The translations under genes were made by a program, and so were the position numbers. A stretch of 64,000 bases of DNA from Massalongia carnosa. Its lineage: Eukaryota. Of this stretch, positions 5,501-62,450 are shown one piece after another (the stretch's first letter is position 1; the number at the start of each line of letters is the position of its first letter). The notes beneath the pieces were generated by a model, which was not told the origin of the DNA, searched no databases, and saw only the letters and a list, made by a program, of their open reading frames with translations. The DNA lies in contig OZ287086.1 of assembly GCA_965645245.1 (NCBI GenBank), forward strand, positions 992,001-1,056,000. Reading direction: 5' to 3'.

Positions 5501-5918
5501 AAGCAAAACACACGTTATATCCCACGATCGCACAACAGGCGCCTATACACAGTAAAAGGCTTAACGCACACAAGTTACTAGACAAAGCGCAAAGCTCACT
5601 AGCAACACAGATAAGAACGGAAAAAATCGGATTGGCCAACTTTCTATATCGGCGCAAGGTCCCAGGTGTGAACTCGGCGGCATGTCCCTGCGGAAGCCTC
5701 TTACAAACAGCCAAACATGTAATCATGTTCTGCAGACTGCACGAACACAGAACGCACATGCTATGAACGGCAGGCTCGTCAGACTACCGCAAGCTAATCA
5801 CCGAACCCAAAGCTCTCAAAGTAGTAACCGCGTGGCTCATGCGCACAGGTATTTTAACACAGTATTCCATTGCCACGCAACTGCTTGAACAGCAGCCGGG
5901 CAGTCTCTCTTCAGTTTG
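2512..5918 (+). pseudogene. LINE ORF2: AP endonuclease, reverse transcriptase and C-terminal Cys/His motif, disrupted
   Basis: LQYNV, IQEPW, GDFNLHHPYW and SDH endonuclease motifs; WRPIALLNTLGK, GIPQGSPLSP and FVDD RT motifs; CPCG..QTAKHVIMFC. In-frame stops at 3022-3024 and 5764-5766, frameshifts at ~3780 and ~3945; the frame continues to TGA at 5918. Confidence 0.9.
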
Positions 5919-27604: not shown

Positions 27605-30221
27605 ACCCGTGCAGCTTAGGCGCACAGTTCCAGGGGGGGCGATGCAAAGGCAGCTTCCGACTCAGTCACGTCTAGGACGCGCTGGCTTAATGTGTCCGAG
27701 TCCCTCTCGGCCTCGACGAGTCGGAATCCCACAGGCTTGGAGTCAGCCGCGGTCTCGTCTGACTTCGGAGTGGCAGGCTTTTTGCCCTTTTTCTTCCCCC
27801 CCTTGGTCCTTCTCATTGCCGCCTGGATATCAGGATCCGACGCCCGTGCAGCATTCGGGGTGGTATCCATCCCTACGACAGCAATTGAGGATTCCGTGCG
27901 CGTCTCCGGTGGAGTATTGTTGAAGACGAAGGATTCCTTCGGCCCTTGACCGACTTCATCTGAAGAAACTAATGCGTAGGCTCTCGTTTGATATACCTCG
28001 CTTTCCCCCCCGACGACCCCCTGACCCAGCAGTGTGGCCTCGTCTTGACGATGCAAGCCTGGCCCTGCGTAGTCCGGGCGTCGCGAGGGTCCATCTGCCG
28101 GATTATTCCGACCAGGTCTGTACTCGAGCTGTAGGTCTAGACTGGATAGTCTTTCCCACCAACGCGCTTCGCGTCTAGATAGTGTTTTGGTTGTGAAAAA
28201 GGTGCGAAGGTTTCCATGATCGGTGAGCACTTTGACGGGGAAGTTTGCCCCTTCAAGCTAGTGTCTCCAATTTTTGCACGCTTCCACGATTGCTAACATT
28301 TCCTTCTCCCCGACCCCATAATTGATTTCTGCAGGGGTCATTTTCCGGGACCAGAAGGCGATCGGGTGCCATTGGCCCGTTTCTTCGACTAGTTGACTGA
28401 GGATTCCTGATAGGGCGAAATCTGACGCATCCGTCTCGAGCTTAATACGCCTTGCAGGATCGAAATGCAGCAACATTGGGGCGCTAGTGAACGCGATTTT
28501 TAACGCCTCAAAAGCCCCCTTTGCCTTGTCCGTCCACACGAACTTCCCCCGGAAACGGCCTTTGTCCCCACCTTTCAGCAAGGAAGTGCTTGGCGCCACT
28601 ATGCGCGAGAATCCTTTGATGAAGCGTCTATAGAAGTTGGCGAATCCAAGAAAGACTTGAACTTCTCGATGAGATTTCGGCTCCGGCCATTGCGTCACCG
28701 TAAAAATTCGTCCTGGGTCCATGGCGATGCCTTTTCGGGAGAGTATGTAGCCCAGGAAGTCCAGCTCGTACGCGTGGAAGATGCATTTCGATAACTTTGC
28801 GTGTAGTTTCCATTTCCGCAATTGATCCAGAACCCATCGAACGTGGCCCGAATGCTCCTCTTCCGTCTTGGAGAAGATGAGGATGTCGTCAAGATATACT
28901 ACTACGAACTGGTCGAGATTCTCTTTCAACACTTCGTGAATGAACGCTTGAAAGGAGGCGGGGGCATTGACCAGTCCGAAGGGCATGACTCTATACTCAA
29001 AATGGCCATATCTACATCTGAAGGCCGTCTTCCATTCGTCCCCGGCGGCGATTCGGAGGGTGTTGTATGCGTCCCTCAAATCCAACTTGGTGTAGATAGC
29101 CGACCCGCTGACGATGTCGAACAGCCCCTGGATCAGGGGTAGAGGGTACTTATTCTTAATCGTAGCAGCATTTAGGGCCCGATAATCGACACAGAGACGT
29201 AGACTACCATCTTTCTTCTTGGTGAATAGGATGGGCGCGCCTAGTCGTGAGGTGCTATGGGTAATATACCCTTTTGCCAGGTTGTCGTCGATGTAGTCTT
29301 TTAGGGTTTCTAGTTCGGTGAGGGAGAGGTTATACATGGCCCGGGTCGGGGGTGGTTCGCCTTCCAGATTGATTTTATGGTCGTGGGGCCCTCGTTCTGG
29401 TAGCACTGAAGCTTTTTCATTGGAGCAGACGTCACTGTAGGATTGATACAGAGGCAGAAGTTTATTGCTAGACGTAGAGATGGCACCAACTATTGACTCC
29501 GACTCCGGGCTCCCACCGAGCACTTCCCGAATGTCTATTAGGAATGCGTCGACGCCCTCGCATTCGCAGATGTCAAAGATCTCCTGCTCACTCACCATTG
29601 CCACTACTGGGAGATTGCTACTTCGATGAGGGGTTTCCTCATCGCCTACAGTGACCCCGGGACGTTCCCCTGGCAGGTCATCTCGTACTTCACCCTCGAT
29701 GAGGTGGCTTTCATGGATTATCCTCCTTTCGCGCTAGCCGATGGATGGATTGGCATGACCCAACCAGGGCAAGCCCAGGATCATGTCCACCCCATACATG
29801 TCTGACGCGACGAATGCCTGCTCGGCCACTCGCTCAAGACCATTGTCATCAACAACCCCGACGCGCAGGGCATGATCAAAATAAGTCTGGAAGGGGGTTC
29901 ATCGAGAGTTTTCAACCCAGATTGTGGAGGGGAGCCGGGAGGATCTCGAACACCTACCTCATTTAGCCAGGTTTGAGCGATAAGGTTCCAAGTTGCTCCG
30001 CAGTCGATCATTGCTCGGACACGATGCTGACTGTTGTCGTAATATAGGAAAACCGTTGAGAAGAGGTGGCGGCATGGGGATTTCCTCATTTGCCGGGCCA
30101 ATACGACGGAGGCAACGTCTATTGGCCCCGACCTTTTCCCGGCCGGCGGGATGATCCCCGCGGCGACGGCCGGGACCGACCTTCGAATTGAAGGTGCCCC
30201 ATTTTCCCGCAGTTCCAGCAA
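27605..30221 (-). pseudogene. pol: Gypsy protease, RT and RNase H (5' part of pol)
   Basis: AMIDCGAT, LCVDYRALN, MPFGLVNAPA, YLDD, ETDASD and NNPADGPSR motifs, with stops and frameshifts. Confidence 0.92.
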
Positions 30222-39300: not shown

Positions 39301-40660
39301 TCGATGATAACCGTGACTAGTACGGCTTTTCCAACATGAAGTGAGAATATTTGCCAAAGATCACTGATGTTGACCGCCTTCGGTTGACCAGCCTTCTCCA
39401 TGGCTTTTTCCAGCTCTTTAACCAGAGAGTCCTGGTTGGGGTATACAACTTGATAGATTTGATACAAGAGCGAACGTACGATTGCCACTTGCGTGTATTT
39501 CAGTATCGGCGTCCTTGCAAAAGAAGTAAAGTACTCGACCATAATCTCTTGATGCTTCGTCGGAGCAATCGTGGTCTATCAAGAACGAAGAGTACTGTTT
39601 TGCCGGCTCCAGGCCTCGCGGAAATCCATAGAAATGACCCCCTTGAATCGTCACCCTTCGCCCATATTTCAAATTCCTTCCTTTTCAGAACCCACTTGCA
39701 GGTACCAGGATGAAGAGACTTTTTAGCTGACATCAGATCTTGGACATAATAATCGGTGTCATACGATTGAGGAGCGAGCCAACTATTGATATCCTTTTGT
39801 CGTGAGAATTCTTGAGCTTCTATCAACTCTCGGTTGACATGCTTTTGTTCGACTCTCGATTTCTTAGCTTCTCCGATATGCTCAGCAAGAGCGGCTTTCT
39901 CGACTCGATCGCGATTTTCAGTCATCTCCTGTTCAAGCTCCTGGAGTTTGGAAGCACAATCATTCCACGCGACTCGGAATAATCTCCAGTGTCTTCGGCC
40001 TCGATAATACTTGCAGGCACGGATCCAAAAACGGAGCATGGAATTATAAAATGCATTTACACTATTATGAACTAGGGGAGAATCAAATATATCCGCATAC
40101 ACCTCTATTCGTGGTAAGCAATTAACCATGACCGCAAAGCCTTGACATAATTTGGCATGCTCTTCTGCGGAAGCATCAACTAACGTAAGCACAAACTTGA
40201 TGCTACCCCACAGTAAGGATGCAGCCGAGTTGGCTCCTGCTAATTTATCGATGCAAGCACTGAACCGCTGGATACGAGTGGAACCGGCCCGAATCGTGTC
40301 GCCTACTTTTGTGAATCGGCTCCCTTCACGCCGGCGCTCCCATTCTTCTATGTGGCGTAAAACACCTTCAGGCCCTGTCGGAAGCTCCAATCTCGAAATA
40401 TCCTTCTTCGAAAGCGACTTTTCAAAGGCGCTCTTTGCGTCTTTGCAGATAGCGAGAGTGCTTGAAGTCTAGCCCCGGGCCTAGTGACACTAGGCCGTTC
40501 GCGACGGGGGGAGCCAGCGACGTTTTGGATATTCTAGTCAATCCTTAGTATCACGTATGGCCTGGAGAGTTTTAACGTCCGAAGCTGTGGAGACTACTAC
40601 CGTCGAAGTGTATTCCGCCGTGTCGCTTCTGGGATGCTTCCCAACACGATGGCAAAACGA
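36375..40660 (-). pseudogene. NLR-like NACHT protein (helical N-terminal domain, NACHT, degenerate beta-propeller-like C-terminus), fragmented
   Basis: ASLLWGSIKFVL N-domain, HPGTCKW, WISARPGAGKT P-loop, VIIDALDEC Walker B, GMFLWAYL, RPLRLEEL and LIHLSIKEFL. Many frameshifts and stops; the start is approximate. Confidence 0.8.
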
Positions 40661-41767: not shown

Positions 41768-42024
41768 GGCCAGCGCATAAGCTCATTAATCTTCGCTAGC
41801 GACAGGCCACAAATACCCCACACCCCCCAGAGCAATGCACCTAGAACAGGAGGAGCGGTGTGAGGCAGGAGGGTTAAGAATGCTACTATGAGGTAGCATC
41901 CGACCCCACTTGGCTACCAAAAGGAGCCAATTCTGAAATGGCGGTGTGGAATCAAGCCAATGCGCCTGACCACCTACCACAATAGATAGGAAGAGTGCTA
42001 CGCCCACGTACTGAAAGGATACGA

Positions 42025-42302
42025 AGTAGAACGCTCATATACCAAAGGCTACGAGGCAAACGCTCACATACCAGACGGCTACGAGGCGAAGACGCTCATA
42101 CGAAGCAGAACGCTCACATACCGAAGGCTACGAGGCGGAGAACTTGCTCATATACCAAAGGTTACGAAGCGAAGACGCTCACATACCAGACGGCTACGAG
42201 GCGAAGACGCTCATACGAAGCAGAACGCTCACATACCGAAGGCTACGAGGCGGAGAACTTGCTCATATACCAAAGGTTACGAAGCGAAGACGCTCGCATA
42301 CC
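42025..42302 (+). repeat. Tandem repeat array in the Copia 5' leader (~115-bp period made of shorter subunits)
   Basis: CGCTCACATACCAGACGGCTACGAGG recurs at 42061 and 42176. Confidence 0.85.
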
Positions 42303-42375
42303 ACAACAGCTACAAGGCAACCCACCTTCCTACAACCCAAAGGCGTTGAGAACTCTTCGCCCAAAAAACCACAAA

Positions 42376-43332
42376 ATGTCAGACCGACGAGAAGAGCAGG
42401 AGAAGGCTCCCCGCATCATTCTCCAAGGCTCCGAGAACTATACATTATGGCGATCCTACATTCTGGGAGAGCTCAAGCAGAAGAACTGCGCCTGGGCAGT
42501 CACCGGAAAGCCAGAGCCAACGAAGGAGTCCGTCAGATCGGACATCATAGCCATGGGCTTCAAACCCACCGAAATGACGGCCCAAGCACTCTGGACTGCC
42601 CTCTCCACCGAAATTAAAGAGCACCGAGCCTCCCTGAGCAAAGCGGAGGGCATCATCAAAAACTCCGTAGCCTCCAAACACCAAGCAGCTATCGAGGGCA
42701 AAGAAGCCAAGGAAATGTGGGAAACCCTACAAACGAAATTTCAGCACATCTCTCCAATGAGCATCTCGCGACTCATCCTGGAGACCACCAAATTACGACT
42801 ATCGGACTGCACAGACATTCACGAATATTGCAGCAAATACCAAGAGGCCTACGACACTGTGTGCGGCCTCATTCCCACAGATTCCGAGATCCCCGCAAAA
42901 GGAGCCGAGGTACTCCTGCAGGCAGGACTGCTCACTGGGATGGGAAACGAATACTCGGGGATCGTCTCTATGATGGAGACAGAGTGGAAAATGGGGAACA
43001 CAAACATCGCCGAGAGCACTAAAAAGCTTATCCGGTTTGCAGAAATCAGGAAAGAGAACGACCAAACTCCAGGACAATCCGGCACACCCAAACAATCGGC
43101 ACTCTTCACCTCCAAACCACCAAAGCCTAGTAATCGAGCACCCCCGGGGACCTGCACAAACTCAGATTGCATCAAGAAGGGAAATACACAGCACTACACA
43201 GACCGTTGTTTCCTGAGATACCCCGAACTTCGGCCAAAACACTCGCTGCATCAGATGAGAACAAAAGGCTCTAGGCAAAACCTCCAAAGCCAGACAGAGA
43301 GCCCTTCCGAGACCCCGTCCCGCGAAAGTTGA
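42376..43332 (+). CDS. gag: Copia gag
   Basis: MSDRREEQ...LQGSENYTLW, AKEMWETL and a Cys/His segment CTNSDC...HYTDRC; ends in TGA. Confidence 0.9.
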   Translation: MSDRREEQEKAPRIILQGSENYTLWRSYILGELKQKNCAWAVTGKPEPTKESVRSDIIAMGFKPTEMTAQALWTALSTEIKEHRASLSKAEGIIKNSVASKHQAAIEGKEAKEMWETLQTKFQHISPMSISRLILETTKLRLSDCTDIHEYCSKYQEAYDTVCGLIPTDSEIPAKGAEVLLQAGLLTGMGNEYSGIVSMMETEWKMGNTNIAESTKKLIRFAEIRKENDQTPGQSGTPKQSALFTSKPPKPSNRAPPGTCTNSDCIKKGNTQHYTDRCFLRYPELRPKHSLHQMRTKGSRQNLQSQTESPSETPSRES

Positions 43333-46300
43333 CAACCAAAGGTGCTAGCGGTCAAAGGGCCGAGAGACGCTTCCTGGCTGGTTGACAGCGCGGCGGACGT
43401 GCACGTGTGCAATGATCGAAGCTTGATGACTGAGTACCACGAAAAGCCTACCCGGATCGGAGGCTCAACTGCAGATGGGGTTTCACCAGGCCGTGGAAAG
43501 GTGCGCCTTCGCCTCAGCCTGAAAGACGGTCGCGAAGGAGTGATCCTGAACCTGAACAACGTGTTTTTCCTTCCCCACAGTCCTTCTAATCTTGTCAGCC
43601 TCGGCCTTCTTAACATTCATGGAATTTTCTATGATAATGAGAACGAGACACTCTATGATAGAAGAACAAAGGAAACCCTGGCTTACGCCGAAAGGTGGAG
43701 GACCAGCTTCCTTCTTCACCCTCTCAACCTCTCTGTCTCTGCAACTCATCTAAAGCAGATCGACGCCAACACGTACGAGTGGCCACCACACGCCTACAGG
43801 ACCACCACCTCATCAAAACTACCTCTCACCACCTGGCACAAACGACTCGGCCACCTCAACTTCCCCTCACTGAAGCAAAATCTCCACAAACTGGAGATCG
43901 ACTACTTGGACGACTCAGAAAAGTACGTGTGTGACAGCTGCCAACGTGCGAAAGCCACAAAAATCTACAACCGCCACGAGCCTCAGAAACGAGCAAGCGA
44001 GTCGTACCAGTTTATACACACAGACCTAGTAGGTCCCATCAACCCTGTTGGTTTTGGAGGGGAGAGATACTTCTTCACATTTACGGATGACTTCACGCGA
44101 TATACCGAAGTGCACACTGGTGCCCGGAAAAGCGATTGGTTCAAATGTCTTAAGACCTTCTACAACCTCTGCAAAACCAGGTCACACAAAGAGAGACCAG
44201 TCGAACGCCTACGTTCAGATTATGGATCAGAACTGCAGAGCAAAAGGGTAGAGGAATGGTTTGCGAAGAAGGGCATCACTTTTGAACCCTCAGCACCGTA
44301 CTCTCAGGAACAAAACGGCGTGTCAGAACGAATGGGAAGAACCATCATGGATATGACAAGAGCGACAATCCTAGAGGGAAGCCTTGATGACGAGCTGTGG
44401 CCTGAAATTGTTCTTGCGATGACGTACGTCAAAAATGTTCGTCCCACGAAGGCTTTAGGTGGAGACAACCCCTACCATGCACAGCAGAAAATCCACCCAG
44501 ATATCCAACACCTCCGAGTGTTAGGCTCGACAGTGTACGTTCTCCTACACGAAGAGGAACGAGCCTTAAAGTCTGAGAAGTGGAACCCACGAGCCTTACG
44601 CGGTATTCTTGTTGGATACGATGGTCATACAATCTACAGAGTCCACATCCGAGAACAGAACAAAGTCATTCGCATCAAAGATCTCAGAATCTTTGAAGAC
44701 TACGAGGCCAAGACGTCCACCGAGCTTCCTGAATACAAAAACACTCCCACCTTCTCAGGTTTCTTACTCTCCGATGACGATGACGAGGCGACGAGCGACA
44801 CACAGATGTTGGATGTAGGCCGAAAGTTCAACAATGCAACAGGTGCCAGCGAGTCAACTCCCAGTAAAGTAACCCCTAGGAAGGGCCGAAAGGTCACTAC
44901 TAGAGATGAAACTACTGGAGCGTCAAATGAAACTACGGAGACAAGGAAGTCTCGGTCTGGCCGAACGATAAGGCCTACACAAAAGGCTCAAGATCAAGAT
45001 CTGATAGTACATCTCAGCAAGCTGCTAGACCTTGACTGGGAACACAGCTCGGAGGAAAAAGCAAACGCGTTCCTGACAAACATCGAATGCGAGGAGGACG
45101 GCCATGACGCAGACGACGACCCATACACAATCTTGACTTCGAGGCTCATTCAGGCCAACGCCCAAAGTAAAGGAGACTACGTCCTTGCCACCCAATTAGA
45201 TGTCGAAGAACCTGAGTCATACAACAGGGCAATGCAATGCCCCCACGCCTCGCAGTGGGCACAGGCAATGAAAGAAGAAATAGACTCTCTACACGAAAAC
45301 AAGACCTGGGTTCTCATACCAAAGAACGAGATGGAGTCAGGTCATCGACCTCTGGGGGGGAAGTGGGTGTACAAGGTCAAGCGTGATGTCGAAGGCAAGG
45401 TATCTAGATTCAAAGCCAGATGGGTTATCAAAGGGTACCTACAGCAGTTTGGTGTTGATTTCGATCAAACCTACGCATCCGTGGTGAAGCCAATGGCCTT
45501 CAGAACCCTGTTCGCCCTTGCCGCCTTCTTCGACCTGGACATCGACCAGATGGACGTAAAAACGGCTTTTCTCTATGGCCTCATTGATCAACTGATATAT
45601 ATGGAGATTCCAAAGGGAACTGAGACAGAAGCCACAAAGAATATGGTTTGCAAACTGTTGAAAGCTATCTACGGCCTCAAACAATCTCCCCGCCTCTGGT
45701 ACGAACGCTTTTCAGCCTTCCTCCTCGAGAAACTAGGCTTGAAACGCATCCACGCAGACCACAGTATATTCGTATCGGGTGCAGGGCTGAAAGGTCCCGT
45801 ACTCAGCGTCTTCGTAGATGACATCAAGATTATGGCGCCAAAGGACAGTGGGATAATCAAGCGAGTCAAAGCAGAACTCACAGCTGCATTCTCTATGTCA
45901 GATATGTGTCCCATCAGCTTTTACCTAGGACTGAGAATAGATCGGGATCGAAAGCAACGAACCATCAAACTGTCTCAACCGGCCTACATCGAAAAAGTGT
46001 TGGAGAGATTCCATCTCGACAAAGCCAACCCCGTCAACACCCCGATGAAAGAATCTGTGCCACTCTCCCAACGCGAGGAAGGAGAAGCCTCACCACCAGA
46101 GAAGGAGAGATACCAAGGAATGACGGGGTCCATAATGTTCTCCATGGTAGAGACCAGACCAGATATTGCCTTCGCCACGTCCCTCGTAAGTCGCTTTGCC
46201 AAGAACCCGAGCCATCAGCACACCGAAGCAGTCAAAACCATCCTCAAATACCTCAAGGGCTCGAAACATCGAGGCATAACCTATGGGGGGGATGAAGAAC

Positions 46301-46863
46301 TGAAAATCGAAGGCTATTCGGACTCGGATTGGGCAGGTGACAAGGACAGCCGGAAGTCAACATCCGGTTTCATCTTTATGCTGAACGGGGGACCGATAAG
46401 CTGGTGCTCTAAAAGGCAATTAACAGTTGCTCTCTCTTCCACAGAAGCGGAATACATCGCACTCACGCTGGCCGCCAAAGAAGCCACCTGGCTTCGTCTA
46501 CTCCTCACAGAGCTTGGGGTGTTGGAAGCGGACCAACAGCATGCTGAGATCAAGGTCTCCAACAAGAACTCGTGCGTACAAGCGATCGACAGAGACCTCA
46601 ACAGCCTCAAGCCCAGCGACGGAGACCCCACTGTTTCACTCAAAGGTGACAACCAAGGATCTCTTGCTCTGGCACACAACCCAGTATTCCATGCCAGGAC
46701 CAAACACATCGATATCCAGCACCATTACATCCGAGACGAGGTGGAGGCAAAGAGAATCGAGTTGACCTACGTGCCAACTGGGGAGATGATCGCCGACGGC
46801 CTGACGAAGGCCCTAACGCACGCAAAGTTCCACACCTTTGTCGAACAGATGCAGATGACCTAG
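43333..46863 (+). CDS. pol: Copia pol (PR, INT, RT, RNase H), in frame with gag after one UGA
   Basis: WLVDSAA, WHKRLGH...CDSC, HTDLVGP, RSDYGSE, QNGVSER, FVDD, YSDSDWAG and ADGLTK motifs. Confidence 0.95.
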   Translation, partial: QPKVLAVKGPRDASWLVDSAADVHVCNDRSLMTEYHEKPTRIGGSTADGVSPGRGKVRLRLSLKDGREGVILNLNNVFFLPHSPSNLVSLGLLNIHGIFYDNENETLYDRRTKETLAYAERWRTSFLLHPLNLSVSATHLKQIDANTYEWPPHAYRTTTSSKLPLTTWHKRLGHLNFPSLKQNLHKLEIDYLDDSEKYVCDSCQRAKATKIYNRHEPQKRASESYQFIHTDLVGPINPVGFGGERYFFTFTDDFTRYTEVHTGARKSDWFKCLKTFYNLCKTRSHKERPVERLRSDYGSELQSKRVEEWFAKKGITFEPSAPYSQEQNGVSERMGRTIMDMTRATILEGSLDDELWPEIVLAMTYVKNVRPTKALGGDNPYHAQQKIHPDIQHLRVLGSTVYVLLHEEERALKSEKWNPRALRGILVGYDGHTIYRVHIREQNKVIRIKDLRIFEDYEAKTSTELPEYKNTPTFSGFLLSDDDDEATSDTQMLDVGRKFNNATGASESTPSKVTPRKGRKVTTRDETTGASNETTETRKSRSGRTIRPTQKAQDQDLIVHLSKLLDLDWEHSSEEKANAFLTNIECEEDGHDADDDPYTILTSRLIQANAQSKGDYVLATQLDVEEPESYNRAMQCPHASQWAQAMKEEIDSLHENKTWVLIPKNEMESGHRPLGGKWVYKVKRDVEGKVSRFKARWVIKGYLQQFGVDFDQTYASVVKPMAFRTLFALAAFFDLDIDQMDVKTAFLYGLIDQLIYMEIPKGTETEATKNMVCKLLKAIYGLKQSPRLWYERFSAFLLEKLGLKRIHADHSIFVSGAGLKGPVLSVFVDDIKIMAPKDSGIIKRVKAELTAAFSMSDMCPISFYLGLRIDRDRKQRTIKLSQPAYIEKVLERFHLDKANPVNTPMKESVPLSQREEGEASPPEKERYQGMTGSIMFSMVETRPDIAFATSLVSRFAKNPSHQHTEAVKTILKYLKGSKHRGITYGGDEELKIEGYSDSDWAGDKDSRKSTSGFIFMLNGGPISWCSKRQLTVALSSTEAEYIALTLAAKEATWLRLLLTELGVLEADQQHAEIKVSNKNSCVQAIDRDLNSLKPSDGDPTVSLKGDNQGSLALAHNPVFHARTKHIDIQHHYIRDEVEAKRIELTYVPTGEMIADGLTKALTHAKFHTFVEQMQMT

Positions 46864-48345: not shown

Positions 48346-51300
48346 GTTAAGGGGGTTTTTGCTATAGCAAAAAATCCGGTCAATAAGGTCCTCGGGAGGA
48401 CCCCCCTCGAACTTCCTTCCTTCTAGATAGCATTAATATAATCACCTTTCAAAGCCTTCAGTATGCTACGAAGCCTCCTGTAATCAAAGGGTTATGAGCC
48501 CGGCTAGACGCTAGGGAAGTGCTATATAATCTCTTCTCTTCCTACATATCTAGTCCTCGTCCTTGTAGGCCAATTATCAAGCCTCAAAGAACCTCCTCAG
48601 CTGTCGGTGCTTAGTCTTCAACAATGGGACTAGAACCCTATCGGATAAAGCCATTGGTAGGTGAAAAGAACTACAATGTATGGAAGGAGGAGGTGAAAGG
48701 CCTCCTCAGTTTAGACGAACTGTGGGATATAGTTAAAGGGGAAGAACTCCGACCCCTTAATGCTCCGCCTCGACCAGTGGACTCCCCTTCTAAGATAGAG
48801 GATGGAGTCACCACCCCCGCCATAGTAGTGACAAAAAGCACTATTGAGCGGTGGGAGGACAAACTGGAGGCCTTCGAGGACAAACAGAAGAAATGGGACA
48901 AGCGAAGGGTAAAAGCAGCTACCAAGATATACTTGAACTGTGGAACAGGCCCTCGAGTCCATATAGAGGGCCTGGAAGACCCAAAAGAGATGTGGGATGT
49001 ACTGGAAAAGCATTACAAAGCAACAAGTCTGGCCACTAGAGACCTGGCCTTCCTTCAACTTCGTGCTAGCCAATCAGATTTCAAATCCATTCAGGAGTAC
49101 GCCGAACACCTAAAGAAGGCCCACTCCCAGTTGATACAACTCGGTCACAAGTTACCAGACTGGGTTCTCTCTACCTCGTTCCGACTTGTCTTAAACCGGA
49201 CCTGAACCTTATATCTTCAGTCTCGTAGAGGCTGCAAGAGCAAACATGAGGGAGTTAGACGTTGACGAGATGATGATGGCCTTAATAGATCATGATAACC
49301 GCCAACATAACTTAGAGGAATCCAACAAGGCACTGACGGCTAAGTTCAACAGGAAGGAAAAGAAAGAAGAAGATAAGAAGAGCAAAAAGGAGAAAAAGGA
49401 GAAAAAGGAGAAAAAGGGGAAAAAGGAGAAAAATACCAATTCGTCAAAATGTGAATACTGTGACGGTCCTGGTCACAACAAGACCAATTGCTATTATCTG
49501 AATGCAACCAACCGGCCCCATCTAAGGAAAACTTAGTGAAAAATAAGAATAAGAACAAGAAGGAATCTAATCCCTCGTCCAAATCAGCTTTCGTTCTAAG
49601 ATCAATGATAACCAAGAGCCTCTTTACTAACGTCCATAAGTCTCAAAATAAGGATCGTACCTGGTGGATAGACCCGGCTTCCGATGTCCATATTTGCTAT
49701 GACAAAGACCTATTTGATGATTATCAACCAATTAGAGGAAAGGTCATAAAAACGGCCAACTCCACTGACATGATTATTAAAGGAAAAGGATCTGTTACCC
49801 TGTATCTAGACGTGGATGGTGAATCAAAGGCTGTGTGCCTAAAGGATGTCCATCACGTACCCGAGTCAGGATACAATCTGTTTTCTGTAGGTGTTATTGA
49901 GTCGAAAGGATTTGAATTTCGAGTAGGAAAAGGAAGAACTGAATGTTTTGCCCCTGACGGAGAACTCTGTCTTACTGGTACTCGTCAGTCTTCTGGATCC
50001 ACACACTCGATCGACCTGGAACAATCAAAGACCTTACATACCTCTTACAAATCCTCTGACAATGCCTCGTGGACGGTGTGGCACCGACGATTAGGCCATC
50101 TCAACATGAAGGACGTCAAGATTTTAGCTAAACTCTCCACTGGCATTGATGCAATTAAGGCTGATAAATGTGAATCAGCAGAACCTAAAATCAACGTGTG
50201 TCCATCATGTGCAATAGGAAAACAACATCGAAATCTAGTTAGAATTCAACGACTAAAGGCCACCAACATCGGTGAAATCGTACATACCGACATTGCTGGC
50301 GGGGGGGACATACCTCAGACAGTTGGTGGAGCCAAGTATGCTGCCTCCTTCGTTGACGATTTTACAGACTGGACGGTGATTTACCTTCTGAAGAAAAAAA
50401 TCCGAATTAAAGGAGGTCCTAAAGGACTATTTAGCATGGATGAAGACACAAGGACACCCGGTCAAACTTATGCGCAGTGACAACGGAGGAGAGTATGCTG
50501 GCCATCAGACCTTAAGAATTTTGAAGGACAATGGCATCGAGTGGGATGCGACAGCACCACACAATCCGAATCAGAAATGGGGTAGTCGAGAGGTGCTTTC
50601 GCACCCTCTTCGAGCGAACCCGTGCGATTCTTAGTGACAGTGGAATGCCTTCTAATAAATGGGGGGAGGCTATTTCCTACGTTACTTACCTGAAAAACAG
50701 GAGTCCAAGGCATGTTGATAAAACACCCTTCGAACTAATGTATGGCAGACAGCCAGACTTGTCGGGTGCTCGTATCTTCGGGTGCGTAGCATACTCTTAC
50801 AATATTGACCCTCAGAAGAAGAAGCTGGACGACAGAAGCATCAATGCAGATTTCTTGGCCTTCAAGGCAACAACAAGTATCGCCTTTGGGACCTCACCTC
50901 CAAGAAACTCAGCATTTCGGCACACGTGCTATGGGACGAGACCGCATCCCTTTCGCTTGAAGAATCGGGGGATGGCGACGACGACGACTATGGCTTCTTA
51001 CAATTCTTCTACCGAAATGGTGACGACGAGGTGGATACATCAGGGGTGATAATTTATTCAAATGAAGAGGAGGAACCCGTTGATGAGGAACCCCCTAAAT
51101 GACCTTTAGAACCGGAATTTGCAGATGAAGGAACCGGGCGAGAGGACGACGATAAATCAGAAAGTTCGGAAAATTCCGAGGACTCACAAGTAGCCGACCT
51201 AACCTCTGGGTCATCAACTGCTCCTTTTACAGGCTAATTTACTAGTAATTCCGAGCAGTCGATCAAATCCGCACCAGGACAGGTACCTCAGGAACCTAGA

Positions 51301-52770
51301 CCACCACCTCCACCAACATCATCATCCCGACCATCCCGAAACACCTCTCGACCCGATTATGCTAAATTAGCTGATCCATGGTCTAAAAAAGGAGTTAACA
51401 AGGGATTCGCATTGAGAGCTCTTAAGGCCTCCTTAAACGACCTCACCGTCCCCAGCACCTAAAAGGAGGCCAATCAGTCTTCAGAGGCTACCGAATGGAT
51501 CCGAGCATCAGAGGAGGAGGTTGAATCTCATTCCATCAACGGGACCTGGGAGCTGGAAATTCCACCACCTGGTAGGAAGATCCTCCCTGGTAGATGGGTT
51601 TATACCACCAAACTCGGTCCAGATGGGGAAATATCTCGATTTAAGGCCCTATGGGTAGGTAATGGTTTTTGCCAGATAGAAGGCATTGACTATAATCAAA
51701 CCTATGCCAGCGTGGTCAAATCAATGACATGGAAGGCCCTGCTGGCTATAGCGGCTAGATATGACCTGGAGGTCGAACAGATCGACGTGGTCACCGCTTC
51801 CCTTGAGGCCCCTCTAAAAGAGGAGGTCTGGATGGAACAACCCAATGGGTTTGTCAAACCAGGGGGATATGCCTGTCGCTTGAAGAAGGCCTTGTATGGT
51901 CACAAGCAGGCCCCCCGTGAATGGTATTCCACCCTCACTGACTATCTTATCACCATGGGCTATAGGAGAGTGGACGAGGACCATTCGGTCTATATTCATC
52001 AGCAAAATGGCATCATAATAGCCATTTATGTGGATGATCTACTTCTCATCGGACCCTCTCTTTCGGACATCAGTCTCTTCAGGACTGAATTGTCTCACCG
52101 ATTCCAGATCAAGGATCTTGGACCAATTAATTTCTATTTAGGGATGCACGTCACTCGGGACCGGCCAAATAGCAGAATATATGTTCATTAATCGGCGTAC
52201 ATTAGGCGGGTCATCGATGTAGTTGACATGTCCGATTGCAAATCCGTCAAAACACCCATGGAGACCAATCTTCTTCTGGTCAAGAATTACTATAAAGGCA
52301 AGATATAGGAGGCCACAAATAGAGAGATCAAGGCAAATCAAATGCTTATTGGATCTCTATTGTGGTTAGCATTTATGACTCGGCTGGATATTGCTTACTC
52401 GGTGAATCGCTGCAGTAGATATTCAATCAATCCTACCCCCTATCAAGGCGCAATCTTAAAAATAATCATTCGGTATTTTGCTGGAACAAGGGACCTAGGC
52501 CTATGTTTTGGATCCTTCTATGAGGGTATTCACACCGATTTAATCGGTTATACTGATGCCTCTTATGGAGACTATCTGGACACTAGGAGATCCACTTCCG
52601 CCTATGTCTTCCTCCTGAACAGCGGACCAATCAGCTGGTCAACGAAACGCCAGGCCTCGGTGGCCACCTCCACAGCTGAGGCTGATTATATAGGGGAGTG
52701 CCATGCTGGCGAGGAGGCTGGCTTCTTGGCGAATGCCTTGAAATCCTTGGGATATGGTGTCAACGCGAGA
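48346..52770 (+). mobile_element. Second Ty1/Copia family, degenerate and 3'-truncated
   Basis: PBS at 48490, gag from 48624 with CEYCDGPGHNKTNC, then WWIDPAS, WHRRLGH, RSDNGGEY, YVDD and YTDAS. Many frameshifts and stops; no 3' LTR. Confidence 0.9.
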
Positions 52771-54961: not shown

Positions 54962-57900
54962 TTAAGATTCCACTGTTAAACTCTCCCTCTGCCACTCATT
55001 GAGAGCCTCAAGCGAAGACTCTGTATCAGGATGTTGAGGACCCAATTTGTGATTACTTAGCTCAAAGCATTCCTTTAGCAGTGAGAGAGCCTCATCATTG
55101 CGGCCTTGAGACTTCCACGTGAATGCAAGGTTGTTTATGCTGGTCAGCGTGTCTGGATGCTCCGTCCCTAGCACCCTCTTTCTCGTCTCCATCACTTGCA
55201 CCTCCAGCTCTTCGGCCTCCGTCCATCGTCCTTGATTCGAATACGTCGACGCAAGGTTGCTCATGCTGATCAGCGTGTCTGGATGCTCCGTCCCTAGCAC
55301 CCTCTTTCTCGTCTCCATCACTTGCACCTTCAGCTCTTCGGTCTCCGTCCATTGTCCTTGATTCGAATACGTCGACGCAAGGTTGCTCATGCTGGTCAGC
55401 GTGGAAGGATGCTCCGTCCCTAGCACCCTCTTTCTCGTCTCCATCACTTGCACCTCCAGCTCTTCGGCCTCCGTCCATCGTCCTTGATCCCTGTACGTCG
55501 ACGCAAGGTTGCTCATGCTGGTCAGCGTGGAAGGATGCTCCGTCCCTAGCACCCTCGCACTCTTCTCCATCACTTGCACCTCCAGCTCTTCGGCCTCCGT
55601 CCATCGTCCTTGATCCCTGTACGTCGAGGCAAGGTTGTTCATGCTGGTCAGCGTGTCTGAATGCTCCGTCCCTAGCACCCTCGCACTCTTCTCCATCACT
55701 TGCACCTCCAGCTCTTCGGCCTCCGTCCATCGTCCTTGATTCGAATACGTCGACGCAAGGTTGTTCATGCTGATCAGCGTAGAAGGATGCTCCGTCCCTA
55801 GCACCCTCGCACTCGTCTCCATCACTTGCACCTTCAGCTCTTCGGCCTCCGTCCATCGTCCTTGATTCGAATACGTCGACGCAAGGTTGCTCATGCTGAT
55901 CAGCGTAGAAGGATGCTCCGTCCCTAGCACCCTCGCACTCGTCTCCATCACTTGCACCTTCAGCTCTTCGGCCTCCGTCCATCGTCCTTGATTCGAATAC
56001 GTCGACGCAAGGTTGCTCATGCTGATCAGCGTGGAAGGATGCTCCGTCCCTAGCACCCTCTTTCTCGTCTCCATCACTTGCACCTCCAGCTCTTCGGCCT
56101 CCGTCCATCGTCCTTGATCCCTGTACGTCGACGCAAGGTTGCTCATGCTGGTCAGCGTGTCTGGATGCTCCGTCCCTAGCACCCTCGCACTCTTCTCCAT
56201 CACTTGCACCTCCAGCTCTTCGGCCTCCGTCCATCGTCCTTGATCCCTGTACGTCGACGCAAGGTTGCTCATGCTGGTCAGCGTGGAAGGATGCTCCGTC
56301 CCTAGCACCCTCGCCCTCTTCTCCATCACTTGCACCTCCAGCTCTTCGGCCTCCGTCCATCGTCCTTGATTCGAATACGTCGACGCAAGGTTGTTCATGC
56401 TGGTCAGCGTGGAAGGATGCTCCGGCCCTAGCACCCTCTTTCTCGTCTCCATCACTTGCACCTTCAGCTCTTCGGCCTCCGTCCATCGTCCTTGATTCGA
56501 ATACGTCGACGCAAGGTTGCTCATGCTGGTCAGCGTGTCTGGATGCTCCGTCCCTAGCACCCTCGCACTCTTCTCCATCACTTGCACCTCCAGCTCTTCG
56601 GCCTCCGTCCATCGTCCTTGATCCCTGTACGTCGACGCAAGGTTGCTCATGCTGGTCAGCGTGGAAGGATGCTCCGTCCCTAGCGCCCTCTTTCTCGTCT
56701 CCATCACTTGCACCTCCAGCTCTTCGGCCTCCGTCCATCGTCCTTGATTCGAATACGTCGACGCAAGGTTGTTCATGCTGGTCAGCGTGGAAGGATGCTC
56801 CGGCCCTAGCACCCTCTTTCTCGTCTCCATCACTTGCACCTTCAGCTCTTCGGCCTCCGTCCATCGTCCTTGATCCCTGTACGTCGACGCAAGGTTGCTC
56901 ATGCTGGTCAGCGTGGAAGGATGCTCCGTCCCTAGCACCCTCTTTCTCGTCTCCATCACTTGCACCTCCAGCTCTTCGGCCTCCGTCCATCGTCCTTGAT
57001 CCCTGTACGTCGACGCAAGGTTGCTCATGCTGGTCAGCGTGGAAGGATGCTCCGTCCCTAGCACCCTCGCACTCGTCTCCATCACTTGCACCTCCAGCTC
57101 TTCGGCCTCCGTCCATCGTCCTTGATTCCAATACGTCGACGCAAGGTTGCTCATGCTGGTCAGCGTGGAAGGATGCTCCGTCCCTAGCACCCTCTTTCTC
57201 GTCTCCATCACTTGCACCTCCAGCTCTTCGGCCTCCGTCCATCGTCCTTGATCCCTGTACGTCGACGCAAGGTTGCTCATGCTGGTCAGCGTGTCTGGAT
57301 GCTCCGTCCCTAGCACCCTCGCACTCTTCTCCATCACTTGCACCACCAGCTCTTCGGCCTCCGTCCATCGTCCTTGATTCGAATACGTCGACGCAAGGTT
57401 GCTCATGCTGGTCAGCGTGGAAGGATGCTCCGTCCCTAGCACCCTCGCACTCGTCTCCATCACTTGCACCTCCAGCTCTTCGGCCTCCGTCCATCGTCCT
57501 TGATTCGAATACGTCGACGCAAGGTTGCTCATGCTGGTCAGCGTGGAAGGATGCTCCGTCCCTAGCACCCTCTTTCTCGTCTCCATCACTTGCACCTCCA
57601 GCTCTTCGGCCTCCGTCCATCGTCCTTGATCCCTGTACGTCGACGCAAGGTTGCTCATGCTGGTCAGCGTGGAAGGATGCTCCGTCCCTAGCACCCTCTT
57701 TCTCGTCTCCATCACTTGCACCTCCAGCTCTTCGGCCTCCGTCCATCGTCCTTGATCCCTGTACGTCGACGCAAGGTTGCTCATGCTGGTCAGCGTGTCT
57801 GGATGCTCCGTCCCTAGCACCCTCGCACTCTTCTCCATCACTTGCACCACCAGCTCTTCGGCCTCCGTCCATCGTCCTTGATTCGAATACGTCGACGCAA

Positions 57901-59940
57901 GGTTGCTCATGCTGGTCAGCGTGGAAGGATGCTCCGTCCCTAGCACCCTCGCACTCGTCTCCATCACTTGCACCTCCAGCTCTTCGGCCTCCGTCCATCG
58001 TCCTTGATTCCAATACGTCGAGGCAAGGTTGCTCATGCTGGTCAGCGTGGAAGGATGCTCCGCTCCTAGCACCCTCTTTCTCGTCTCCATCACTTGCACC
58101 TTCAGCTTTTCTGCCTCCATTTGTCGCCCTCCACTGCTGTATGCCATGGCTAGCATAGCCATACTATCCAATGTCTCTTCATCCTCTAGACCCAGCAATG
58201 TTTGCCTGGTTTTTGTTGCTTTTCGGGCCATTGTCGCTGCTTCAACGTAACTCCCTTTCGTCAACGCATACCATGCAGCGTGATATAGTATCAAGGCCCA
58301 ATCTTGTAATGAGCTTTCGACAGCTGGCTGCTGCGCTACTGCCGACTTTGCGTGAGGAAAAAGCGCTTGACACTTTGTCCAATTCTCGTAATCTCCCGTC
58401 GGAAATACTGTACTGAGATTCTTGATGAACTGCTGCTTCCATCTTTCGAGCTGATTGGATGCTTCTAGCCACTTTCTGATGGCTAGCTGCACTAGCCCGT
58501 GCATCTCAAAGGTGGTTTCATTCATGCTGATGGTGATGAACGAGTAGTTTCTCAAGACAAGTATGTCGGCTTCAAACTCGTCGACGCTGGAATCGGACAC
58601 GGTATCCTCATTGCTATCGTCTTCGTGGCCATCATCTTCGTCATCTCCAGCATTTTCTCCCGTATTTTCATTTCCTGCCTCATTTTGTGTCTTGAGTAAA
58701 GCCTCAGGAATTCCCTGTCGATCGAAAAAGCTCATAAGCGACAGCAGATTAGCCGCCGAAGGCCTAGTCTGATGAATATGATCAAACGATATTTGCCAGG
58801 TTATAATGATCGAGTTTTTAGCCTCACGGTCCCTGCGAAGATGTCCCGCTTTGTGATTCAAGAGACTAGTTCTTTTTTTATCATTCTTATGAAACTCATC
58901 TACGTACTGTCGTACAGAATATCTTGGTACTCTTAGTCGAATGTATGCAGCCGCTTGAACAATGGCAAGCGGCATAAATTCAAGTGCTACTGCTAGCTCA
59001 GAAGTATCTTCTCTATCGGTCTGTTCTCCCAGCTTCTTTTCAAGAAGCGTTAGCGCATGTGTATGATTCATCGGCTCAATTGGTATTATGTCATTTGCTT
59101 CCGCTAGCTGCAATGCCACGCTCTTAGTCCGGGAGGTGATGAGAACCGAGCCGTTTCGGCTCTGAGGTAGATATGCTAACAGTGATTGCATGGATCCGCC
59201 GCTAGAGCCGCTGGCCTGCGTCTTCTGGCCCGTAACACAAGTTTCGAAAAGCACAGTAGCTTCGTCGGCATTGTCGAGGACCAGAGCCCACTTTCCGTTC
59301 TTCTCGTCACGTAACCACTTGTCAACTAGCCGGAATATGTCCGCCTTTGGGTCCCCCCTGCCAGGAATCTTGACTTGCTCTGCAATCTCTCTGTAACCTT
59401 GCTCGATACGGGCTGCGTTGCTGGCGTGTATCCAGAAAACCCACGTCGCCGGGAACTGCTCTCTGATTTGATAGCAGTATTCGATGGCAAGCTGCGACTT
59501 TCTTTGCGAAAGTAAGCTATTAGAACTAGCCTGAGGCCCTTTGGCTTACCCAACGCCGCCTAGGCCGACAAGCGCTACCCTTGACGCTGGCGCGGCGCAC
59601 TTTTCGTGGATCTGATCAAGTAGCTTTCCGCGATCGACGAAATCAGGGTCGCGGCGGAAAGGAACAGTAGATGATGGGCTTGGTGGGGTATCGGGTCTTT
59701 CTACAAACGCAGAATGCTATCAGCCTTGGCTCACAGAACGCTATATCATTGCGAATGCCGACTTGCCTGGATATTGAAAAATATTGTTTATCTGAGAGCC
59801 TAATCAGGATTTAGCATAAGATCAATATCGATGTGAACAGGATCCAGACCAATCACTTTCGCATGGCCTGAGACGTCACCGACCACAGCGCCTTGGTTGC
59901 CAGAAATGGTGCCAAAGACTGCTAGCGTGTTACCGATCAT
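54962..59940 (-). CDS. Fungal NLR: short N-terminal amyloid-like motif, NB-ARC and ~24 near-identical TPRs; exons 59940-59850, 59799-59767, 59700-59550, 59501-54962
   Basis: The spliced frame is open: MIGNTLAVFGTISGNQGAVVGDVSGHAKVIGSQINNIFQYPERPDTPP...VPFRRDPDFVDR...GLGGVGKS (P-loop), LVLDNAD (Walker B), VLITSR, MPLAIVQAAAYI, MHGLVQ. Intron 2 is GC-AG. Confidence 0.92.
55120..58110 (-). repeat. 126-bp (42-aa) TPR tandem array, ~24 units
   Basis: Unit GTEHPSTLTSMSNLASTYxxQGRWTEAEELxVQVMExxxRVL. Confidence 0.97.
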
Positions 59941-60148
59941 TGCTGCGTCAGAAGATTGTAGACATTAGAGCTCGGAGCTATATTGAATAAGACTGAAAAC
60001 CATTCATTATCTTTACCGTGCTCAGGACCGCACCTAGGCTCGGTCAGAAACTCGACGCCCAAGACTTTCCAAAAGCACTGTTCATCTCTAAGTATAAATA
60101 TAGGCACGGACTCGCCGATGGAGGGCCCCCCGCCATCATGCAGGATCG
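59941..60148. promoter_or_regulatory. Probable bidirectional promoter of the NLR / hydrolase pair
   Basis: About 210-260 bp between divergent starts, with TATAAATATA at ~60093. Confidence 0.45.
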
Positions 60149-61578
60149 ATGGCTGATAGAGCCAAGGCTATGCACGTGCTGAAGCGCCTGGTCTCCATGC
60201 AGGCGGTATCACAATTATCTCGAATAAGTTACCGTATAGTGCTAAATTTGAAGCACGACTCCTCTGTAGTATTGCGATGACAACGCCGAACCGTACGGAT
60301 TAGGCGACCCCCTCTTTGATTCTCCAGAGGCGAATATAGAGTACGCACCAGATGTCATTTCTCGTCCGGGTTGCTTTGTACTAACCAAACAGTATTGTCT
60401 TCGTCCACGGGCTCGGCGGCGATAGAGTGAAAACGTGGACATGGGAGGGTCGAGATAGATCGCTGTTGTGGCCGCAAGATCTCTTACCTCAAGCCTGCCC
60501 AACAGCTCGCATCCTTTCTTTTGGGTACAATGCGGACTTTGCTCACTTCTATCCGTTTGTTGGACCGAAATTCATCCCGGAGCATTTGACTATTGATGAT
60601 CACGCGACTGCAATGTTCCAGGGCCTAATCGGTCTCCGCGAGAAAACCAAAACTGTAGGAATCGGTGCACCCCTACCCTTTCCACCAGAAATATGCTAAT
60701 AGGATGTCTATGTCCAGGCTGAACGGCCAATTATTTTCGTCTCGCACAGCCTAGGGGGTCTCGTGTGCGCCAACGCGTTGTCAAGGCACAATGGTACCGA
60801 CATGGCTAGCATTACCCTCGTAGAGAGAACGATTGGAGTCGTCTTCCTTGGAACGCCCTTTGAGGGATCGTCAAAAGCAAAATGGGGAAGCAGGGCTCTA
60901 CAGATACTGGGCTGGATAAGCACCACGCATAAGCAGGATATAAAAGATCTTGAAGAGCGTTCGGCAAAGCTCATCAGCGTTAACGAAGCCTTTCAGAAAT
61001 TCCTGAAAGCACGGGATCGTTCAGAATCAAGAGAGTTTGTGGAAGTAGCTTGCTTCTTTGAACAGTATGCTATGTACAAGGGAGGGACGAAGATGGGGTT
61101 TATCGTGCCCAAGTAATCGGCTTGCCTACCTGGTATCGATCCACAGTCGATCCAGGCGAATCATGTTGATATGTGCAAGTTTGAGGATGAAGACCGAGAG
61201 GGATACAAGAGAATTTCACAAAAGTTGGTTCAATGGAGATCGGATCTTGATAGTCGATCCAAGGGATCTGGAGAGGATCGCCAGGTCTGACATCTCTTTC
61301 GCGCGCTTGAAATCAGCTGAAACCCAACAGAAACACTCGGTTCGTATGGGCGATGTTAACTTTAGGGGCAATATCGATAACAATCGAGGTGTGATTATGG
61401 GTCATGCAAACAGTACGGCCACAGACGGGGTTAGGATAACTGGAAGTAATATCACTGTAAGGATCACCTATCCTTTCGATAGCGATGTACAAGCTGATAG
61501 AACATAAAGAATACTTTCATGGCATTAACCCAAAAGACTCTGTGTAGACCGAGGGATAGGAAATGGCGGAACTACTAG
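60149..61578 (+). pseudogene. SesB-like alpha/beta hydrolase (DUF676-type) with a C-terminal amyloid-like motif; one in-frame TAA at 61114-61116
   Basis: DIVFVHGLGG, LLWPQDLLP, ARILSFGYNA, SHSLGG nucleophile elbow, FLGTPFEGS and ANHVDMCKF. Introns 60206-60269, 60341-60392, 60655-60717, 61285-61330 and from 61457. The start codon and last exon are uncertain. Confidence 0.85.
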
Positions 61579-62169
61579 TCAACATGAGGGAGTCATTCTA
61601 GGACATTATTCAGGAACATGAACTTATCAACTGACATTTTGACGTCTTTCAAAACAATGGTTCTCTTGCGCAATCACCAGCTTCGGGTGGAGGTTGACTC
61701 CTTGTGAGACGTGAAGAGCTCGCATGACAAGAGTTACAGGCTTCAAATATGCCGCAGCTAGAGGGGGCCACTTTCTAGAGCATACTTATTCGTCTTATGT
61801 TCAATCTCTAAATCCTACCTTTACTTCCGTAAGCACTTCGGAACAAAATTCTGACAAGATCTTAAGTCATTAATGAATGAATAAGCTTCTTACTTCATTA
61901 CTTCACGTAGATGCAATCACGGAGATTTATAAAGACGTACAGTCAATGCTTACGTCTGTCGAGCCTTGATAAAGTACGCTGAAATTAAAACTCGATAGAG
62001 CATCTTAATCGACAACAAAACTAAAGCTGAGACGAGCAATTACAATACATCAAGTCCTGACATCTATTCCTATCATCATCATTATGTCAGTTCGGTACGT
62101 TGACAGTATTGAGGTTCTGCCTCAAGATTCCAAAGCGTTTGAGCAAGGACTGAGGTTGACAGAAAAATC

Positions 62170-62450
62170 TTCACTGATCTATGTTAATAATTGGCGGGCG
62201 ATTCACAGAGATAAAGTGGAAGCGACATCATCAGAAGATCATGATCAAGCATTGCAGCTACTGCTGAAGATAGGAGTCAACGTGAACGCTCAAGGTGCTG
62301 ACGGCGTCATCTAATGATCATGATCGAGTGATGCAGATACTGCTCGACAAAGAGGCTAATCCCAACGCTCAATGTGATATGACAGCGCATTACAGGCTGT
62401 ATCTGCGGAAGATCATGACAAAGTAATGCAAATGTTACTTGCTGCTGATG
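62170..62450 (+). pseudogene. Degenerate ankyrin repeats
   Basis: ALQLLLKIGVNVNAQG and SALQAVSAEDHDKVMQMLL-like segments with G>A decay. Confidence 0.55.

Follow-up and report, generated by a model that had tools for sequence, protein, structure and literature searches.

The PNT1/HELLP/SBP system of Chaetomium globosum and Podospora anserina pairs an NB-ARC/TPR NOD-like receptor (NLR), which has no effector domain and begins with a short motif of the PP family, with the adjacent SesB-like lipase SBP, at whose C terminus the motif is repeated (PMC7885112, PMC5485727; here and below, papers are cited from excerpts). In the het-eN/sesA/sesB cluster of Nectria haematococca, a SesB-type hydrolase and an NLR share a G/N-rich terminal extension, the sigma motif (PMC3321046). 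NWD2 and HET-S represent the same NLR-to-effector templating logic with the HRAM motif and an unstructured effector tail, and PUASM and PF01048_015 (‘PUASM 2’) are recently added families with the same arrangement of NLR N terminus and effector C terminus. A 2025 paper counts four or five fungal families (PMC12261475). Here we analyse a 64,000-nucleotide stretch of the Massalongia carnosa genome (GenBank assembly GCA_965645245.1, contig OZ287086.1, positions 992,001 to 1,056,000; ‘the window’), the last 9 kb of which hold an NB-ARC/TPR NLR gene on the minus strand and a SesB-like/DUF676 hydrolase gene on the plus strand, head to head. An earlier reading of the sequence alone (the sequence-only reading) had proposed that the two genes form an amyloid-signalling pair with an unfamiliar shared motif.

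The NLR's N terminus and the hydrolase's C terminus do share a G/N/V-rich motif of about 35–45 residues. The two window peptides align with a BLOSUM62 local score of 50; composition-preserving shuffles average 23.1 (standard deviation 4.8), and 1 of 5,000 reaches 50. For the corresponding pair on the metagenome contig L001, 0 of 5,000 such shuffles reach the score of the real pair. Comparing the NLR-side with the effector-side profile in hhalign gave a probability of 92.7% and an E value of 4.4e-7 over 36 columns, and a hidden Markov model (HMM) built from effector tails only placed three motif-bearing NLRs, P0180 (14.2 bits), P0088 (10.9 bits) and P0097 (8.0 bits), above all 3,000 shuffled N termini. 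Pairs from the same locus score 50 (window) and 59 (L001), higher than the cross-locus pairs at 38 and 42 (n = 2); the het-eN/sesA/sesB extensions are likewise more alike within the cluster than between orthologues (PMC3321046).

On the effector side, 33 of 61 short hydrolase homologues (P0001–P0061) end in the motif, with a consensus of roughly S-V-x-M-G-D-V-N-Y-x3-I-x-N-N-x-G-V-V-M-G-H-A-x-x-T-A-x-D-G-V-R-I-x-G-S-x3-N-T-Y. The other 28 end early or carry other N/Q/G-rich tails, in which a Pfam scan detected no amyloid-motif family. On the NLR side, an N terminus of the window type is present in three of the 120 listed NB-ARC/TPR homologues (P0088, P0097 and P0180), and a PP-like pattern in 52. 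A profile of four NLR N termini retrieved one further carrier, the NACHT(NPHP3_N)/ANK protein P0189, and a larger profile search added P0214. In that search, profile A3 (25 rows, both sides combined) was run against 1.84 billion representative proteins at E ≤ 0.001, and side-specific HMMs divided the 69 matches into 21 NLR-type, 46 effector-type and 2 unrelated sequences. Most of the matches are exon-sized open reading frames (ORFs) from unannotated fungal DNA, a sign that gene models often overlook these ends. Named carriers belong to the Dothideomycetes (Pleosporales, Phyllosticta), Eurotiomycetes (Aspergillus, Penicillium, Talaromyces), Sordariomycetes (Xylariales and others) and Orbiliomycetes. 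Measured against Swiss-Prot averages, the motif contains about twice the expected G, 1.5–3 times the expected N and more V, is depleted in L, K, P and E, and is not enriched in Q; apart from Q, the same bias has been reported for signalling amyloids by Dyrka et al. (bioRxiv 10.1101/2020.01.06.895854).

The pairing recurs outside the window. L001 (2,984 nt) carries an intact hydrolase that is 72% identical in nucleotide sequence to that of the window, with NLR exon 1 and a micro-exon head to head about 280 nt upstream. In Aspergillus nanangensis, the hydrolase P0012 (KAF9893431.1) and the NACHT/ANK NLR P0214 (KAF9893432.1) bear consecutive accession numbers and share a 671,713-bp contig. Homologous pairs thus keep both the motif and the adjacency, as the sequence-only reading had expected of a true pair, and the profile check it had suggested, for co-occurrence at NLR N termini and effector C termini, gave the matches above, adjacent in these two loci. 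The motif sits on receptors of NB-ARC/TPR (window, P0088, P0097, P0180) and NPHP3_N/ANK (P0189, P0214) architecture, and on effectors that are DUF676-type hydrolases or, in one case, a PNP_UDP-type C-terminal fragment (P0233), which matches the PNP_UDP region of P0069 with 45% identity across 87 residues (E 1e-17). In P0062–P0067, NB-ARC fusion proteins of 1,213–1,377 residues, the hydrolase domain of the pair stands at the N terminus; three of these carry NB-ARC or AAA_16 in a precomputed Pfam list. Such fusions are the ‘in cis’ counterpart of the split NLR/hydrolase pair, a cis/trans duality described by Daskalov et al. 2012 (PMC3321046). The motif is a conserved, modular family with recurrent gene adjacency, and the general features of a signalling pair are all found: an NLR N terminus consisting of the motif only, a C-terminal effector motif, conserved adjacency and modularity.

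A related arrangement was seen on the 15.5-kb metagenome contig L005, where a related hydrolase and a divergent upstream gene occupy 7933-8865 (minus strand) and 10001-11432 (plus strand). The hydrolase tail reads ...Q-S-I-A-A-G-H-V-V-G-T-T-K-D-A-V-R-I and a peptide resembling it, ...N-S-I-A-T-G-H-I-H-G... (13.3 bits, E 0.062), opens the product of the upstream gene. A Pfam scan of the upstream gene found no NLR or other domain.

Given the splice models in Table 1, both motif peptides are encoded where they had been placed by manual splicing. In the NLR, the motif part of exon 1 reads F-G-T-I-S-G-N-Q-G-A-V-V-G-D-V-S-G-H-A-K-V-I, and P0088 and P0180, both annotated homologues, contain equivalents of the micro-exon residues. 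The exon 1/micro-exon structure is repeated in L001, with a micro-exon of 30 nt, and homology to these three sequences supports the predicted splicing. Intron read-through ORFs of relatives (P0222, P0224, P0231 and P0238) end in Q/R-A-S; these protein fragments suggest that the GC donor of intron 2 is conserved. A 5′ intron in the NLR gene of the het-eN cluster similarly hid the homology in the first annotation (PMC3321046). We also compared the window with contigs from four public runs (X1–X4), which have no joints at the predicted introns and no bearing on splicing or expression. Ahead of the Pro-rich linker and the NB-ARC domain lie about 42 residues, and a Pfam scan of exons 1 and 3 found no domain there, in agreement with the earlier view that a short peptide replaces the effector domain. 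The linker itself occurs in most of the 120 listed homologues. A 48-nt intron separates exon 3 from exon 4, whose ORF of 1,527 codons matches TPR_10 (25 stretches) and DUF7779 in Pfam; NLR homologues with NB-ARC are 49–61% identical. Fungal NLR repeat arrays like the one in exon 4 are prone to unequal recombination.

The hydrolase is predicted to consist of five coding pieces (Table 1). Its nucleophile elbow, the Pfam matches of its homologues and an AlphaFold2 core identify it as a SesB-like/DUF676 alpha/beta-hydrolase, of which the window copy is broken. On the window exon piece, DUF676 reaches 20.2 bits against a cut-off of 20.3, and DUF676 and Hydrolase_4 are both weak; homologues pass (P0033 with DUF676 at 31.2, P0010 with Abhydrolase_6 at 27.1), and P0018 is named ‘SesB-related regulatory protein’ by its source. 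In the AlphaFold2 model of P0003, the hydrolase core is confident and residues 290–354 have a predicted local distance difference test score of 31–52, with almost no secondary structure apart from one 4-residue helix (346–349). The C-terminal tail is thus predicted to be disordered in the monomer. Directly after the hydrolase, a short plus-strand ORF (61529-61621) ends in H-E-G-V-I-L-G-H-Y-S-G-T, similar to the motif core (tblastn E values of 0.14 against P0001 and 0.79 against P0010). A duplicated motif exon may have left this relic, or the likeness may be chance.

We read the locus as a fungal NLR/effector pair that would use amyloid-type signalling through a motif family distinct from HRAM, PP, sigma and PUASM, and put the probability of this reading at roughly 0.6. 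The mechanism is proposed by analogy with NWD2/HET-S, PNT1/HELLP/SBP and het-eN/sesA/sesB, from which we infer the amyloid fold, the templating and the effector activation. Ligand-induced oligomerization of the NLR would gather its N-terminal motifs, which would take up a cross-beta (beta-arch) fold; this fold would template the same fold in the hydrolase tail, and the templated tail would activate or relocalize the hydrolase. For the family, there is good support for reading these genes as a signalling pair whose motif is unfamiliar. More tentatively, and with slightly less than even confidence, the motif would make up a fifth or sixth family among the signalling amyloids associated with fungal NLRs, with carriers in at least four classes of Pezizomycotina; it would combine the spacing of PP and RHIM with V or I in place of the hallmark Q and with a receptor copy consistently four residues shorter than the effector copy.

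Several observations weigh against this reading. The motif carriers found in Dendryphion nanum and Lindgomyces ingoldianus are not adjacent, the NLR and the hydrolases lying on different contigs. Among 80 metagenome loci with a related hydrolase, the effector motif was found in only 3 and the NLR motif in only 1. The window NLR peptide alone scores 3.6 bits (E 9.2) against the effector HMM. In its central loop the NLR-side motif falls four residues short of the effector-side one, which complicates strict in-register templating. In the window, the effector gene shows a premature TAA, lacks an in-frame ATG and is frameshifted at its end, and the NLR motif has a 6-residue deletion. Finally, the silence of the Pfam amyloid-motif models, reported below, is weak evidence for novelty because these models are insensitive: although a control, P0068, matches PF17046 at 1.5e-10, the PP-like P0099 is missed.

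The sequence-only reading could assign the motif to no named family, and this held for the published patterns and for the Pfam models that we ran, within the sensitivity of the latter. None of the published HRAM, PP, sigma and PUASM patterns fits, and PF17046, PF17106 and PF11558 match neither the window peptides nor 11 motif carriers. The sigma pattern comprises three repeats of G-x-G-x-Q-F-N-x-x and G-G-T-Q-N-I-N-T (PMC3321046); neither repeat is present on inspection of alignments A3–A5. HRAM is 21 residues long, with position 19 occupied by G and positions 5, 8, 10, 16 and 18 by hydrophobic residues, and is usually doubled in the effector (PMC4518210). The motif described here resembles it in the conserved G at arc positions and in a basic residue before the last strand, but it is present in a single copy and its last strand, R-h-x-G, is one residue short of R-h-x-h-G; an HRAM reading was rejected on this spacing. 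Where NWD2/HET-S has a HeLo pore-former as its effector, the present pair has an enzyme. The PUASM pattern, F-x-G-x-G-x-Q-x-x-G-x-G-x-F, is reported on PNP_UDP effectors (PMC9815663) and is absent from A3–A5, where the effectors are mainly hydrolases, although one PNP_UDP-type fragment (P0233) does carry the present motif. PF01048_015 is similar in that its partners are NB-ARC(/TPR) NLRs with N termini of about 44 residues (PMC9815663); it differs, when compared by carriers rather than by profile, in that its Fusarium and Verticillium carriers do not occur among the 69 profile matches, though the two motifs might yet be one and the same. NLR34 of the same paper was also considered and rejected, its 25 carriers in the excerpted source being Fusarium NACHT proteins, five from Tuber, one from Lomentospora and one NACHT protein from the basidiomycete Pyrrhoderma noxium. 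Motif strings and accessions had no match in the supplement tables of PMC9815663, the FASTA and HMM files and figure logos lying outside that search, and a literature search with motif strings found no paper.

The PP family deserves separate weighing, since the same mechanism could be served by a divergent PP (RHIM-like) branch in which the central Q has become V or I and an x-R-I-x-G-S...N-x-Y half has been added at the C-terminal end. PP follows the pattern F-x-G-x(x)-N-x-G-L-Q-L-x-G-x-N-x-G-x-L (PMC3321046) over 17–24 residues (PMC3321046, PMC9815663). The 7-residue register N-x-G-h-X-h-G is common to PP and the present motif, and, extended to N-x-G-h-X-h-G-x-x-[NS]-G, it recurs in the PP-type N termini of NB-ARC/TPR NLRs closely related to that of the window; hhalign aligned exactly this register (P 0.0048 over 14 columns and 0.0021 over 15 columns), but with probabilities of only 7% and 13%. 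PP-like N termini are found in most of the NB-ARC proteins closest to the window NLR, among them the 52 listed above, and the 2022 census records only PP- or sigma-cluster motifs on SesB-like effectors paired with NLRs, in the 27 of 34 rows that the excerpt covers (PMC9815663). The sequence-only reading had noted that the motif lacks the central Q. This is true of the receptor side, where all 20 of the 20 sequences have V or I there, and of 61 of 67 profile matches, one having Q; it does not hold throughout the effector side, because 4 of 34 effector rows (P0033, P0035, P0038 and P0039) have Q in a G-V-Q-x-G context. A conserved Q at the centre of G-h-Q-h-G is lacking, and the pseudopalindrome N-x-G-x-Q-x-G-x-N, its G-x-N-x-G part included, is absent. 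The conserved stretch of about 45 residues is roughly twice the length of PP, PF17046 stays silent on the 11 motif proteins that were scanned alongside its positive control, and the three loci here showed no HeLo-like partner. On this evidence we regard a mere branch of PP as unlikely. The description of the motif as unfamiliar therefore stands in so far as no named family matches by published pattern or by the Pfam models run, and needs a qualification in that the shared register N-x-G-h-[Q/V]-h-G may mark it as a relative of PP. The motif may have been derived from PP by replacement of the central Q; as a whole, the locus would be a known kind of system with a new motif variant, possibly a PP offshoot.

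A little less likely still, in our estimate, is that the motif is a non-amyloid interaction module, a short beta-hairpin or an added strand, through which one NLR binds one hydrolase with no prion-like templating. The difference in loop length between the two sides and the lack of Q enrichment would suit such a module, and a search of solved structures found nothing similar, amyloid or other, at E ≤ 0.1 (best E 0.49, unrelated). The architecture, however, is exactly that of validated amyloid-signalling pairs, with a motif at the NLR N terminus and the effector C terminus, adjacency and domain swapping; composition and conserved G and N positions fit beta-arch motifs, and the tail is predicted to be disordered in the monomer. 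That two functionally unlinked genes merely look alike through low-complexity composition and choice of splice sites is close to refuted, for although both peptides are rich in G, N, S and T, their junctions rest on models and the window NLR peptide alone is indistinct to the effector HMM, the shuffling tests, the profile–profile comparison, the ranking of three motif NLRs above every shuffled N terminus, the recurrence of the pairing in three independent loci and the conserved micro-exons all speak against it.

The preferred reading, an amyloid-type pair with a distinct motif, applies to the family; the copy in the window, which the sequence-only reading had taken for a working module, does not look functional. 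The hydrolase contains an in-frame TAA (61114-61116) at a position where homologues have E, within IVPKESACLPG, and in the close relative P0257 an overlapping ORF points to a non-stop codon, with G or A at 61114. Removal of the TAA by splicing was rejected, as no GT...AG pair keeps the frame and the conserved S-A-C-L-P-G follows directly after the stop. The only ATG, at 60277, misses the frame of the conserved N terminus, which starts at 60285, by 5 nt; in the other runs an ATG stands directly before 60285, on loose contig ends. Over the 2.4 kb from 59300 to 61700, the contigs of X1–X4 differ from the window at about 120 sites (121 variants). The divergent intergenic region is read as non-coding because the run contigs differ there by 2-nt and 3-nt indels, and an upstream start exon (ATG at 60150 plus an intron) was rejected since these indels fall inside it. 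In the last exon, a 1-nt deletion after NTF shifts the frame where homologues read NTYHGINPKD; the frame supported by homology would end at 61547, three to four contigs of each of X1–X4 have an extra A behind 61516, and the tail of L001 is intact (N-T-Y-N-G-I-N-P).

The NLR motif of the window lacks six residues, of the type S-T-G-A-K-D, that the other 19 of 20 aligned NLR-side sequences have. The window is the only row with this 6-column gap, which corresponds to an 18-nt in-frame deletion in exon 1; an 18-nt insertion is present behind 59915 in X3, with loose ends at 59916 in X1, X2 and X4, and the near-identical relative P0256 has the six residues. The NLR is otherwise open throughout. With three lesions in the hydrolase and this deletion in the NLR, the module is probably dead in the window, the allele consisting of a hydrolase pseudogene and a truncated NLR motif. 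The X1–X4 contigs have a 1-nt deletion of their own at 60515, inside a conserved hydrolase exon. The locus may therefore be decaying in more than one lineage, each with a broken allele of its own, though errors in the contigs are possible. In the relative P0240, the motif exon is normal up to G-V-I-M-G and then diverges; perhaps this, too, is an effector tail that has broken down.

The surroundings of the pair are listed with its exons in Table 1. Positions 1-53000 are rich in transposons. Just downstream of the hydrolase, on the plus strand (62090-62450), three ankyrin-repeat-like stretches of the type D-H-D-x-h-h-Q-h-L-L-x-x-x-A-N-x-N-A-Q are broken by stops and frame changes and look like the remnant of an ANK-repeat gene; a Pfam scan of 62093-62311 gave no match at E ≤ 0.01.

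Table 1. Features of the NLR/hydrolase locus and of the rest of the window (window coordinates; exons and introns are predicted)
Feature	Position	Strand	Details
NLR exon 1	59850..59940	minus	ATG at 59940; encodes MIGNTLAVFGTISGNQGAVVGDVSGHAKVI plus one base; first 30 motif residues
NLR intron 1	59800..59849	minus	GT-AG, 50 nt; from sequence, with an intron at the same position in L001
NLR micro-exon 2	59767..59799	minus	33 nt; encodes SQINNIFQYP, second half of the motif
NLR intron 2	59701..59766	minus	GC-AG, donor GCAAGT, 66 nt; L001 has GTAAGT at the same place
NLR exon 3	59550..59700	minus	Pro-rich linker (ERPDTPPSPS...) and start of NB-ARC up to G-L-G-G-V-G (Walker A)
NLR exon 4	54962..59501	minus	Rest of NB-ARC, DUF7779, about 25 TPR_10/TPR_12 repeats; stop 54962-54964
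Tandem array of TPR-coding 126-bp units	55125..58118	minus	23.8 copies, 93% matches
Divergent intergenic/promoter region	59941..60284	none	Holds the displaced hydrolase ATG, 60277-60279
Hydrolase first coding exon	60285..60340	plus	Begins AEPYGLGDPLFDSPEANI...; tblastn of P0001, P0003, P0006 and P0010; no in-frame ATG
Hydrolase exon with H-G-L-G-G motif	60393..60654	plus	tblastn of homologues
Hydrolase exon with nucleophile elbow S-H-S-L-G-G and conserved A-N-H-V-D-M	60718..61284	plus	TAA inside
Hydrolase exon encoding the C-terminal motif core	61331..61456	plus	KHSVRMGDVNFRGNIDNNRGVIMGHANSTATDGVRITGSNIT; 79% identical to the same stretch of P0003
Hydrolase intron before last exon	61457..61509	plus	Same intron in L001
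Hydrolase last exon	61510..61578	plus	Starts N-T-F, then frameshifted; stop 61576-61578
DDE_3 transposase fragment	2-1042		
RVT_1 element	3931-5763		
Helicase fragment	9590-11353		
Gypsy-type integrase with chromodomain	21208-22350		
Copia-type gag/pol copy	24211-27661		
RVT_1 element with RNase H	28261-29733		
Second NLR-type fragment	39503-40468	minus	DUF7708, then start of NPHP3_N (NACHT-type); 322 codons
Copia-type gag/pol copy	41986-46860		Open pol of 1,176 codons
Copia-type gag/pol copy	49464-52188		

In practical terms, this genome has a decaying allele in surroundings rich in transposons, and not a working module. The family is of wider interest: prion-like amyloid signalling by fungal NLRs serves as a model both of necroptosis signalling through RHIM in animals and of the origin of cross-seeding specificity. 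A further populated family would enlarge the catalogue on which motif detectors are trained, with 67 related clusters at 50% identity from one search, and the position of the motif behind micro-exons would show that gene-model errors hide many NLR-side motifs. The motif would also offer structural work a natural Q-to-V/I variant of a PP-like core. If the templating holds true, neither a Q ladder nor equal repeat length would be needed for NLR-to-effector amyloid signalling, and the Q-type and V-type tails on orthologous hydrolases would form a natural series for the study of cross-seeding barriers.

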